Source: an uncultured Chloroflexia bacterium
GTDB lineage: Bacteria > Chloroflexota > Dehalococcoidia > DSTF01 > JALHUB01
Direction: 5' to 3'
NCBI GenBank assembly: GCA_963726245.1
Contig: CAVSBT010000030.1
Location: 37,480 to 101,479, forward strand
Length of the DNA stretch: 64,000 nt
The notes below the pieces were generated by a model. That model had not been told where the DNA came from. It did no database searches and saw only the letters and a program-made list of their open reading frames with translations. The position numbers and the translations under genes were made by a program. This document shows, in pieces, positions 1 to 64,000 of the stretch. Position 1 is the first letter of the stretch, and each line of letters begins with the position of its first letter.

Positions 1-16
1 GCTCGACGCACCGGCC

Positions 17-2663
17 GTGCTCACACGATTGGAGACTTCCGAGAATGGTCTGAGTGCGGCTGAGGCAACGGGCCGCCTGGGCAAGCTCGGGCCAAACGCC
101 GTTCGCAGCCACGGTGCGAATGCCCTGGATGTGCTGCTCCGCCAGGTCAAGAGCCCCCTCCTGATCCTGCTGGTGGCGGCCGCAGCCACGTCGCTGGTCG
201 TCGGGGAGCGAACCGACGCCCTGATCATCTTTGCCATCATGGCCCTCAGCGTAGGGCTCGGGTTCTTCAATGAGTACCGGGCCGCGCGCGCCGTAGAAGC
301 GCTGCACTCTCGCATCCGCCACACCGCCGTCACGTCCCGCGACGGCAAAGTCGTCGAGGTCGATCTCACGGACCTGGTGCCCGGTGACGTCGTGCGTCTC
401 ACCGTCGGCGAGGTGGTGCCGGCAGATATGCGTCTCCTGGAGGCCGACGAGCTAACGTGTGATGAGGCGATGCTGACGGGTGAAGCGACGCCCGCGGAGA
501 AGAACACCACCCCTGCGCCTCCGGCCGAATCACCCCTCGATCTGCCGTCGTGCGTATTCATGGGCACCGTGGTGCGCACAGGCGGCGGCCGCGGAGTGGT
601 AGTGCAGACGGGAAGAAACACCGCCTTCGGTCGCATCGCCATCCGCCTCGGCGAGGCGCAGGAAGAGACCGGCTTCCAGCTCGGCCTCCGCGATTTCTCC
701 GTCCTGCTCGTAAAGGTCACGGTCGTTCTGACCGTGTCCATCTTCGTCATCAACGTCGCACTGCGACGGCCGCTTCTGGATGCCGCACTCTTCGCTCTAG
801 CCATCGCGGTAGGGCTCACGCCGCAGCTCTTGCCCGCCATCGTTACGATTAGCCTTTCGACCGGCGCCCGTCATCTGGCCCGCAAATCGGTGATCGTCAA
901 GCGGCTCGTAAGCATCGAGGACCTGGGCAACATGGAGGTGCTGTTTACCGACAAGACAGGCACCCTCACGGAAGGTAAGATCACCTACTCGGCGGCCCTC
1001 GATCCCGCCGGCAACCCCTCGAGTGAAGCGTTCCTTCTCGGGCTGCTGTGCAACTCGGCGACGGTCGAAGGCGGCGTCACCGTCAGCGGGAATCCTCTCG
1101 ACCGCGCCCTGTGGGACGCTCCCCAAGCCGCAAGCACCCCCGTGTCGGACTTCGTCCGTCTCGCCGAGGCCCCCTTTGACTACGACCGTCAGCGGATGTC
1201 GGTGCTGGTGCAGGACCCGAAGGGAGCCCGCCGCGTGATAACGAAGGGTGCGCCCGAGTCGGTGCTTGCCCTCTGCCACGAGGTCCCGCCGAGCGTGCCC
1301 GCCCTGCTGAATGCCCAGTTCGATGCCGGCAGCCGGACCATCGCCGTGGCGACTCGTGACGGAGAGCGGCCTCTCGACCATCGGCCCTCAGGACGAGCAC
1401 GACCTCCAGTTCGCTGGGTTCCTCACCTTCGTCGATCGGGCGAAGCCCGACGTTGGCGCTTCGATCGAACGGCTGAACAAGCTCGGCATCACCGTCAAGA
1501 TTGTTACGGGAGACAACGACCGGGTGGCGACCAAGCTCTGCACCGATCTGGGCATGCCCGTCGCTGGTACGCTGACCGGTACCGCCTTGGAGAAGCTGAG
1601 CGATGATGAGCTGGTGGCGGCGCTGCCTTCGACTACGATCTTCGCCCGGGTAACACCTGAACAGAAGTCGCGGATCATCCGGGCCCAGCGGACGCTGGGC
1701 GCCGACGTCGGCTTCCTCGGCGATGGGGTCAACGATGCGGTTGCACTGCATGACGCCGATGTCGGCATCTCAGTGGACTCCGGCGCCGACGTGGCCAAGG
1801 ACGCCGCCGACATCGTGTTGCTTGACAAGGACCTGGGCATCCTGGCGGGCGGCGTCGTCGAGGGCAGGCGCGTATTCGCCAACACCATCAAGTACGTGCT
1901 GATGGGGACATCATCCAACTTCGGCAACATGTTCAGCGCCGGCGGCGCCTCTCTCGTGCTGTCCTTCCTGCCGATGCTACCGCCGCAGATCCTCCTCAAT
2001 AACCTCCTCTACGACGTGAGCGAGATGACCATCCCGACGGACAACGTCGACGAGGAGCTGCTGGAGCATCCGGCGCACTGGGACACCTCTTTCATCCGCA
2101 AGTTCATGATGTTCTTCGGTCCCATCAGCTCGGTGTATGACTTTCTCACTTTTGGGGTCATGCTGTGGGTCTTTAACGCCGGCGAGACGCTGTTTCATTC
2201 CGGGTGGTTCGCCGAGTCGCTCGCCACGCAAACGCTGGTGATCTTCATCATCCGCACCAGGCGGATTCCCTTCTTCCACAGTCGCCCCAGCCGCCCACTG
2301 CTGGCGACGACGCTGGCCTGCGCCGCCATCGGTGTCGTGCTCCCGTTCTCGCCTCTGGCAGGCCTGCTCGGGTTCACGGCGCTGCCCGCCGGCTTCCTTG
2401 CGATCCTGGTGCTGATGGTCGTCACGTATCTGGGTCTGGTCGAGGCCGGCAAGTCGCGGTTCTTCCGGCCGGAGCCGGGCGAGCGGCCTCTGGCCCGGAG
2501 ACGCGGGAAGTGGGAGAGGCGCGTTCACCGGGTTGCGGCGCGCTGGAGCCACCCGAGGCTTCCCGGGACGGGGACTGCCTCACGGAGTCGCCTGAGGTCA
2601 AGCCGCAGGTCTTCGGCCGGCTTGAACAGCGGATCGTCCGACAAGACTGGGGCGGAGCCGTAG
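17..2663 (+). CDS. mgtA: Mg2+-importing P-type ATPase (MgtA-like); one frame break near 1350-1380; possibly 5'-partial at window edge
   Basis: ORF 17..1606 carries the P-type phosphorylation motif DKTGTLTEGKI. ORF 1311..2663 (+1 frame) continues with KIVTGDN, GDGVNDAVAL and the MgtA-type C-terminal block LLYDVSEMTIPTDNVDEE. The two frames overlap at 1311..1606. The first frame is open back to nt 2. Confidence 0.85.
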
Positions 2664-2745
2664 CGGCACCGGCAGGCTGCGGTCTGACAAGCCGAGCGAG
2701 GGCTAGCAGATGCCAGCCCTCGCTCCCTTCTCGGCCAATTGCCTG

Positions 2746-3084
2746 TTAGAGTGCGGCCTCTCCCCTCTCGCCGGTGCGGACGCGCATGGCATCGTCAATC
2801 GTGGAGACGAAGACCTTGCCATCGCCAATCTCGCCCGTGCGTGCGCTGTCTCTGATCGCCTTGAGGACCTTCTCCGCCATGGTGTCAGCGACCACCACCT
2901 CGATCTTCACCTTGGGAAGGACGTCGACGCTGTAGGCCGTGCCACGCCACTGCTGGGTGATACCGCGCTGCGTGCCATGTCCCTTGACCTCGGTGAACGT
3001 GAGACCGCCGTAGCCGATCTCCTCGAGCGCCTTCTGCACCAGCGCCACCCGCTCCGGCCGGACTATCGCTTCGATCTTCTTCAT
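2746..3084 (-). CDS. glnK: P-II nitrogen regulatory protein
   Basis: 112 codons from ATG 3084 with GGAGG just upstream. Sequence MKKIEAIVRPERV..., T-loop GTQRGITQQWRGTAY. Lies immediately downstream of amt, as in amtB-glnK operons. Confidence 0.93.
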   Translation of the reverse strand: MKKIEAIVRPERVALVQKALEEIGYGGLTFTEVKGHGTQRGITQQWRGTAYSVDVLPKVKIEVVVADTMAEKVLKAIRDSARTGEIGDGKVFVSTIDDAMRVRTGERGEAAL

Positions 3085-62532: not shown

Positions 62533-63009
62533 GCACCCACACAACGGCCTCGCCCTGGGGCTTGCTGGGGTCTGTGCCGGTCGCGGCTGCCGGAATCGAG
62601 GGGTTCTCCATGCGTGAGATCGACGCGACGCGGCCGCTCACTACTCCAGCGGGTGCTGCAGTCCCGATACGCCGACCTGCTCACAGTCCGGCAGTCCCAC
62701 GAAATGGCTCACAGCCGGGACGTCGGCGAAGACCGACGCTGCTTGTGGCAGTGACTCCACTTGAGGTCCGTCGAATTGAACACCAGCCACCCAGATCGAG
62801 ACGGGCAACGCCGCCCATCATCCCGGGGCTGTCAGTGGAATGCCCTTCGGACCTGGCGTGGCGACCCAGAAGCATTGAAGAGCCAGTCCTCGCTTGCTCA
62901 GAAGCTGGCGCGGATGAATGCTGCGTTCTGCAGACTTGACCGTCAAGACTCGATTTGATATCCGAGGGCCTCAACCATCGGGCGCGCTCGAGATCAAGCC
63001 CTGTCTCAA

Positions 63010-63771
63010 GTGACCTCCTACGCCGTGTACTACGGCGCTGGGCGGACCAGCGAGCTCAAGCGGTTTGGCCTCGCCATTGTTCGTAGTGAGAGCTATGGGC
63101 ATGACGAGATAGCCTGGCTTCGGCTCCACGATACGCTGGTCCTAGCGTACGTGTCGATTGGGGAGGACCCGCAGTGGCGGAGCGGCGCTTCTTGGTACAG
63201 GACTGACCCTTCAACAGGCCAGCCCCTGCGGAACGAAAAGTGGGGCACCTACTATGTGGACATCCGGGACCTTGCCTGGCAGGAGCAGTTCCTGTTCGGG
63301 GAAGTCTGCGACGCGCTTGACAAAGGGTTCGATGGTCTCTTCCTAGATACGGTGGACCCCTGCGTCGATGTCCCATATTTGGCCGAGGCGGTTCCTTCGC
63401 TGATCGGCACCGTTAGGCAGAGGCTAGGTCGGCGCCTCCTCGTCCTGAACCGGGGTTTCGGTGTCCTTGACACCATCCTTCCTTTCATTGATGGGGTGGT
63501 CTTCGAGGCCTTCTCGTCTCGACCTGTGGGCGATTGCTATGAGCGCTGGGAGGGCACGGATTTAGCGTGGACGGAGGTCATGGCGCGGCGGCTCCAGGCC
63601 CTCCAACGGGCTCGCAGCCTGGCAGTCTTCACGGTGGATTACGCCGACATGCGAGACACACGTTTGGTCCAGACGTTGGTGCAACGGGCCCGCAGCTTCG
63701 GGTTCGTGCCTTACGTCTCCACGGCCAAACTGGATCAACTCTATCTTCTGCCTCAGACCCCCGGCAGCTAG
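63010..63771 (+). CDS. TM1410-type / GH114-GH166-like TIM-barrel putative glycoside hydrolase (PelA hydrolase-domain-like)
   Basis: VLAYVSIGEDPQW...WGTYYVDIRDLAWQ...GFDGLFLDTVD...LVLNRGF...GVVFEAF. 253 codons, no signal peptide seen. Confidence 0.6.
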   Translation: MTSYAVYYGAGRTSELKRFGLAIVRSESYGHDEIAWLRLHDTLVLAYVSIGEDPQWRSGASWYRTDPSTGQPLRNEKWGTYYVDIRDLAWQEQFLFGEVCDALDKGFDGLFLDTVDPCVDVPYLAEAVPSLIGTVRQRLGRRLLVLNRGFGVLDTILPFIDGVVFEAFSSRPVGDCYERWEGTDLAWTEVMARRLQALQRARSLAVFTVDYADMRDTRLVQTLVQRARSFGFVPYVSTAKLDQLYLLPQTPGS

Positions 63772-64000
63772 CCAGGGACGCAGCGCCGTCGTTCAGCATG
63801 TAGCGAGGTGGGACGGAGCGGCGTGGCGGGGGGCCCACGGGGGTGGCCTGTTCGCTTCGCCAATCTGGGCCGACTTGGTGGAGCACGACACGCACTCCAC
63901 CCCGCCTACTCTACGACACGCATTCATCACTCGCGCCCCTTCCCGGTCATGGCCCAAACACCGGGTTTAGACTAGCGCCCTCAAGGCGCAGTGAGCTGAG

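Follow-up and report, generated by a model that had tools for sequence, protein, structure and literature searches.

Frame breaks throughout a Dehalococcoidia metagenome-assembled genome point to single-base consensus errors rather than gene decay

Conserved genes in a stretch of DNA from a Dehalococcoidia (Chloroflexota) metagenome-assembled genome (MAG) appear to be interrupted by about 30 single-base frame breaks. The stretch covers positions 37480-101479 of contig C30, and we refer to its full 64,000 nucleotides (nt) as the window. Are its genes being lost, or is the sequence at fault, and do several of the breaks fall in runs of C, as the original prediction held? The MAG is a draft of 46 contigs and 2.68 Mb, with contigs of up to 320 kb, a G+C content of 66% overall (range 62-70%), an estimated completeness of 82.8% and an estimated contamination of 6.3%. 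The public sequences nearest to it are Dehalococcoidia (Chloroflexota) MAGs, whose best orthologues are only about 61% identical, and a scan of genome and metagenome contig collections with an hpnD-like protein, made for a same-species reference, returned nothing above about 62% identity. The evidence on the breaks is comparative and statistical throughout. It indicates that they are very probably single-base insertion or deletion (indel) errors of the assembly or consensus, present genome-wide, and not gene loss. That the genes are intact in the organism we regard as equally probable.

Rate and distribution of the frame breaks

Frame breaks were located with a reference-free codon-usage Viterbi decoder, which has non-coding, plus-strand coding and minus-strand coding states and charges a penalty for each 1- or 2-base skip. 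Codon log-odds were trained on 693 long open reading frames (ORFs) whose G+C content varies across the three codon positions as expected. Codons scored +0.27 on average in the correct frame, against -0.6 to -0.7 in the wrong frames. In simulations with clean genes, the sensitivity of the decoder was 73-76% for inserted and 54% for deleted bases; it never confused insertions with deletions, and it placed the events with a median error of 2 nt. The breaks first noted in the window are real features of the sequence: without any homology information the decoder recovered 20 of the 33 positions to within 40 nt, and nine further positions are backed by orthologue alignments and split Pfam domains.

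The decoder made 848 frameshift calls across the MAG (0.39 per kb of coding sequence), and calls were present on nearly every contig. As a control, the same decoder was run on 505 kb of coding sequence from 33 related loci or contigs of similar G+C, where it made 10 calls (0.020 per kb). The rate in the MAG is thus about 20-fold above that of the control, and the frame breaks are a genome-wide property that is not specific to the window locus. One extra base accounts for 667 of the calls (~79%) and one missing base for 181 (21%), whereas the control calls were split evenly (five insertions and five deletions). Corrected for decoder sensitivity, the MAG carries about 0.5-0.6 frameshifts per kb of coding sequence with an insertion bias of about 2.7:1. 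The false-positive share is about 5%, and the presence of one false call in the window (6323) is consistent with that share.

The expectation that hits scale with gene length was borne out. The rate was flat, at 0.35-0.44 calls per kb, over gene-length bins up to 4 kb, and a call was carried by 26% of the genes of at least 300 nt and by 84% of those of at least 3 kb. Rates among the large contigs ranged from 0.17 to 1.17 per kb, a spread of about 7-fold (chi2=293, df 45). Furthermore, the calls were over-dispersed along contigs (variance/mean of 2.2 in 5-kb bins), with hot spots that include the rpoBC region. Such variation from contig to contig and from one 5-kb bin to another fits a coverage-dependent error. 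Calls were not enriched at contig ends, since 27.5% of them lie within 10 kb of an end, compared with 29% of the genome.

Homopolymer runs at the break sites

The original prediction attributed the breaks to homopolymer error, placing several of them in C runs and naming five CCCC sites at which removal of one C would restore the protein. On that reading the length of C or G runs would have been over- or under-called, an error familiar from 454, Ion Torrent, Nanopore and polished PacBio sequencing, and deletions in G/C runs of 4-6 nt have been described in polished PacBio assemblies of GC-rich genomes (ARAMIS, PMC8574707). We counted indels inside and outside homopolymers, as had been proposed, and found no concentration in runs of four or more. 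A run of at least four bases lay within ±4 nt of 3.3% of the insertion-type calls, compared with 5.5% of control coding positions (P=0.013), which is a depletion, and one that is seen despite the 2-nt placement accuracy. Within ±6 nt the values were 6.6% and 8.9%, respectively. CCCC and GGGG were among the most depleted 4-mers at call sites. In the window itself 3 of 27 calls (11%) had such a run within ±6 nt, where 8.9% would be expected. The number of breaks in C runs is not above chance.

The same picture emerged from 52 isolated 1-nt indels that could be placed exactly. Thirty-two of these are at a base without an identical neighbor, 13 are in runs of two, and only four are in runs of four or more. 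Two of the six exactly placed deletion-type errors do contract a 5-base run to 4, as homopolymer miscalling would predict, but 79% of all calls are extra bases.

The five CCCC sites fared unequally. The extra base at 61118, in the IS110 gene, does lie in its CCCC and is the only one of the five that holds as predicted. Placement within the run is possible at 29826 (alpha-2-macroglobulin-like gene (A2M), CCCC at 29826-29829) and plausible at 36331 (kinase), although both are ambiguous. The two remaining breaks lie elsewhere. In hpnC the true position is about 17326-17329, which precedes the CCCC at 17340 by 12-15 nt: the orthologues read T[IV]xxFxI-PIEPF, which is fitted by TVREHAV-PIEPF in the window and not by TVRRARR-PIEPF. 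In pstS the extra base is the A at 37859/60 and not a C of the adjacent CCCC at 37862. The frame breaks are not tied to C runs, and homopolymer miscalling is a very unlikely source for them.

Gene decay, recoding and consensus error

In genuine genome decay, known for example from Mycobacterium leprae and from symbionts that became host-restricted recently, essential genes stay intact, frameshifts are accompanied by nonsense codons, deletions and insertion sequence (IS) insertions, and selection is relaxed. The MAG resembles such genomes in the large fraction of its genes that are interrupted by frameshifts, and its completeness of only 82.8% might likewise speak for a real, massive and recent pseudogenisation, either in a decaying lineage or in relic DNA of a dead population. 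However, none of the accompanying marks was found.

As had been predicted, essential and accessory genes were struck alike, and those broken include indispensable genes present in a single copy. The rpoB gene has at least three frame changes, with model positions 775-835 and 833-897 lying in two other frames, while in eight relatives it is a single ORF of 1149-1289 amino acids. The rpoC gene consists of nine collinear pieces in several frames, none of which reaches the family cut-off, and FtsH is split into five pieces. The relatives carry each of rpoB, rpoC and FtsH as one ORF. Decoder calls were also made in SecA, FtsZ, AtpD, GyrA and GroEL, and SecA and FtsZ, like the three genes above, are broken several times. 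An organism in which these breaks were real could not live, and the MAG has only one rpoB locus. The rate follows gene length and not function. The decoder calls themselves are based on a codon bias that persists, unaltered, in the shifted frame until the gene reaches its natural end. The 7-fold difference in rate between large contigs also argues against decay.

The rpoB-rpoC region (C37:108750-116700) is a hot spot in its own right, where frame changes reach about 2 per kb, or five times the average of the genome. The shifts in rpoB sum to a multiple of three, so that a 1450-codon ORF stays open although about 120 conserved residues lie in other frames.

In-frame stops were assessed through adjacent ORF pairs in the same frame, as a read-through state inside the decoder never fires (a gene end plus a new start is cheaper). 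There was no excess of nonsense codons: adjacent pairs separated by at most 15 nt numbered 79 in the same frame and 349 in different frames. In most of these 79 a start codon follows within a few codons of the stop, often with a stretch resembling a ribosome-binding site, which leaves at most about 15 candidates. Three apparent paralogues with an in-frame TGA were considered as possible selenoproteins. The two on C18 and C29, which are paralogous to each other, proved in each case to be an aldehyde:ferredoxin oxidoreductase gene with an ordinary ferredoxin gene behind it; the one on C20 is a gene unrelated to these two.

The bin itself supplies an internal reference: many of its regions are present twice, the copies being 87-98% identical, and part of this duplication comes from dovetailing contig ends. 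Third codon positions differ between the copies 3-5 times more often than first and second positions do. This third-position bias indicates that both copies evolved under purifying selection. In 65.7 kb of aligned copies there were 238 indels, of which 202 were of 1 nt, 26 of 2 nt and 7 of 3 nt, and for isolated 1-nt coding indels the decoder usually flags one of the two copies as frameshifted. Decay would have spared the essential genes and relaxed selection; here rpoB, rpoC and FtsH are broken and the third-position bias is kept. Real pseudogenisation is thus very unlikely.

Two of the co-binned copies overlap the window and fix the breaks in mgtA (~1366) and pstS (37859/60) exactly. The mgtA region (window 1-2583) is 92-94% identical to C29:4466-9515 and the pstSCAB region (37107-41691) is 90% identical to C23:5389-9982; in both cases the copies differ mainly at third codon positions. 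They may derive either from a co-binned related strain or from recent paralogues. Elsewhere in the bin, dovetail overlaps of 5-11 kb, 95.5-97.8% identical, connect the ends of C3/C13, C36/C39 and C6/C24. A syntenic stretch of more than 30 kb with 87-93% identity is shared by C19 and C38. The overlaps and the synteny imply that the bin mixes at least two related populations, in agreement with the 6.3% contamination.

Programmed +1 ribosomal frameshifting is known from prfB and, on a genome-wide scale, from Euplotes. The bias toward a single extra base (667 of 848 calls) moves the frame forward by one base in the same way, and it could be supposed that the cell copes with genuine extra bases through programmed +1 frameshifting, quadruplet decoding or RNA editing. 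The sites in the MAG are unlike those of prfB and Euplotes in several respects. A search of the call sites for a slippery or methylation signal gave only weak enrichments (CGCAG at 8% vs 3%), which may come from a bias of decoder placement, and no shared motif covers more than 8-20% of the sites, the best 5-mer reaching 8%. No stop codon adjoins the shift sites; the next stop in the old frame follows at a median of 288 nt. Nor are the shifts conserved, as the orthologues are unshifted at the same positions and co-binned copies of 90-97% identity are without the extra base. Furthermore, 21% of the calls are missing bases. Recoding of this kind is extremely improbable. A motif-independent correction at the level of RNA or the ribosome, which would read through extra bases truly present in the DNA and so keep rpoB and rpoC working, is no more credible.

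These results strongly support the part of the original prediction that preferred error over selective pseudogenisation. Indels that occur genome-wide, irrespective of function and without other lesions, next to evidence of purifying selection, point to consensus or assembly error and not to decay. Assemblies and MAGs built from long reads (Nanopore or PacBio) are known to contain indel errors that fragment genes and inflate pseudogene counts, for which frameshift-aware tools are used (Kastor, PMC12007338), and gene-fragmenting indel errors have been described in Nanopore MAGs from dog faeces (PMC8103633). The MAG resembles such assemblies in its one-base indels at a roughly constant rate per kb, in the splitting of long genes into several ORFs, in the involvement of all functional classes including essential genes, in the lack of any other lesion type and in its long contigs. 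We propose that the consensus of this draft carries single-base indel errors throughout, mostly extra bases outside homopolymers, and that each of these would shift the apparent frame, such that long genes look broken 3-9 times while short genes often escape. The errors would have arisen in sequencing or in consensus building, the likely cause being noisy long-read data whose coverage was modest and varied along the genome; related strains in the sample possibly made them worse.

Some observations weigh against consensus error. The argument that the indels are absent from the DNA is indirect, the best orthologues being only about 61% identical. The insertion-biased signature, which is independent of homopolymers, is unlike the G/C-run deletions reported for polished PacBio assemblies of GC-rich genomes. 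Finally, no singleton indel was seen when the 16S rRNA gene was compared with that of five relatives, although only about 0.7 would be expected and this carries little weight either way. The gene is full-length and lies at the very start of its contig (C37:154-1651, minus strand; 1550 bits against RF00177), with no 23S rRNA gene or tRNA detected beside it.

The breaks in the window and their consequences

The comparison with orthologues by frameshift-aware alignment that had been suggested was carried out by tblastn with ORFs from 160 related loci. It gave frame changes at eight positions, at about 12638, 16250, 16456, 17330, 19105, 19622, 19990 and 21044. The first of these lies in a polyprenyl synthase gene (12605-12641, plus strand), which has two +1 breaks about 30 nt apart (12610 and 12640) that take the frame from 3 to 1 and then to 2 in a three-frame translation against the G020 orthologue. 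The tblastn alignment goes from frame 3 to frame 2 at 12638, and the Pfam polyprenyl_synt match begins at profile position 24.

The squalene-hopene cyclase gene shc (16250-16475, plus strand) has gained a base at about 16254 and lost one at about 16471, according to the decoder and many orthologues. Against the G020 orthologue, tblastn places the gene in frame 3 throughout, except for residues 440-515. There, frame 3 of the window is unrelated and has a stop at 16395, whereas frame 1 carries the matching ...GWLLGMQSRNGGW. The two errors compensate each other, +1 being followed 217 nt later by -1, so that the original frame is regained after about 75 wrong codons and one stop.

Downstream, the hpnC-like gene of the squalene synthase family (17325-17330, plus strand) has one extra base in gtgCggcgag, called by the decoder at 17325. 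An hpnE-like amine oxidase gene (19100-20030, plus strand) is shifted by +1 three times, near 19105-19127, 19620 and 19985-20029 (decoder calls at 19127, 19620 and 20029). In tblastn it passes from frame 2 to 3, from 3 to 1 and from 1 to 2, with 18-47 orthologues behind each change. The hpnH-like radical SAM gene (21037-21044, plus strand) has a +1 break that the decoder calls at 21037 and at which 64 orthologues switch frame at about 21044. For the hpnG-like nucleosidase gene (21400-21415, plus strand) there was no decoder call; a break near the N-terminal third is indicated by Pfam only, with PNP_UDP_1 starting at profile position 67 on the first residues of the frame 21412-22023.

Two genes could be compared with their co-binned copies. 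In the mgtA-like P-type ATPase gene (1352-1366, plus strand) the decoder call at 1352 corresponds to an additional G near 1366 (GGAGA[G]CGG), which is a single gap relative to the 94%-identical C29:6770-9515. In pstS (37859-37860, plus strand) the decoder call at 37859 coincides with an extra A in CAG[A]ATCCCC, again a single gap, located at that A, relative to the 90-92%-identical copy on C23.

In several other genes the breaks separate domains or parts of domains. The ammonium transporter gene (3620-3632, minus strand) has a +1 break, called at 3626, and the Ammonium_transp profile is divided between ORF 3528-5267 (positions 2-274) and ORF 3125-3970 (positions 269-399). ORF 3528-5267 (minus strand) also encodes an OmpR-type Trans_reg_C domain (residues 39-111) N-terminal to its Amt domain. 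A domain of the same kind ends the GH3 gene at 22042-23739. This gene belongs to a GH3/OmpR-type regulator (23490-24605, minus strand) that is spread over three frames, with breaks near 23490-23690 and 24600. The decoder gives three adjacent fragments, and Glyco_hydro_3 (profile 60-296) lies in ORF 23661-24590 while Trans_reg_C lies in ORF 22042-23739. The class A penicillin-binding protein gene (PBP1C-like; 25828-27502, plus strand) has four +1 breaks by the decoder, at 25828, 26630, 26931 and 27502, and its Transgly, Transpeptidase and BiPBP_C domains are distributed over consecutive separate ORFs. In the giant A2M gene (29823-32397, plus strand) the decoder places breaks at 29823 (+1), 31831 (-1) and 32397 (+1). 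The HAMP-PAS histidine kinase gene (36331-36334, plus strand) has a +1 break, called at 36333, between HisKA and HATPase_c, both of which are intact in the frame-corrected protein.

A P-loop NTPase-like gene (43069-43811, minus strand) has two +1 breaks, at 43069 and 43811, that come from the decoder only, and its corrected protein has AAA matches only below threshold. The PelF-like GT4 glycosyltransferase gene (52540-53640, minus strand) is broken near 53590 according to Pfam, with DUF3492 profile positions 2-93 in ORF 53425-54138 and 118-267 in ORF 52269-53714. A further break lies near 52541-52618, where the decoder call at 52618 matches 52541 only loosely. The IS110 transposase gene (61118-61121, plus strand) has its one extra base inside ATT-CCCC-GAT: the translation reads DAEWI in frame 2 and, 4 nt later, DLLRHGLLRPSFIP in frame 3, and the DEDD_Tnp_IS110 match (profile 1-106) ends at the break. 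In the GH114 gene (61690-61705, plus strand) the N-terminal part lies in another frame. Two decoder fragments in different frames meet at about 61695, and residue 8 of ORF 61690-62529 is the first in the Pfam match (profile 18-231).

Not every decoder call in the window marks a break. That at 6323 was rejected, being the overlap of an ABC ATPase gene with its permease gene, and those at 11010, 46934 and 48648 are doubtful. The call at 46934 bridges a GH114 fragment and a TadB-like C-terminal fragment by a 2-base skip; two truncated genes meet here, and the site is no simple indel. In a CofD/YvcK-like gene (48271-49413, minus strand) the decoded frame matches only positions 88-237 of the 290 in the profile, and the gene is therefore probably also broken near both ends.

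The significance of these findings is practical, as a data-quality flag for this MAG, and their biological interest is low. Ordinary gene callers will mistranslate about one quarter of all its genes and most of the long ones, and its completeness (82.8%) is probably underestimated. Checking confined to homopolymers would miss most errors of this kind. In the window, the readings affected include the thioester motif of A2M, the run-on frame of PelF and the GH3 regulator. Missing residues, truncated domains, fusions and "pseudogenes" in this MAG need frameshift-aware re-reading before they are taken as properties of the organism, whose genes are very probably whole.

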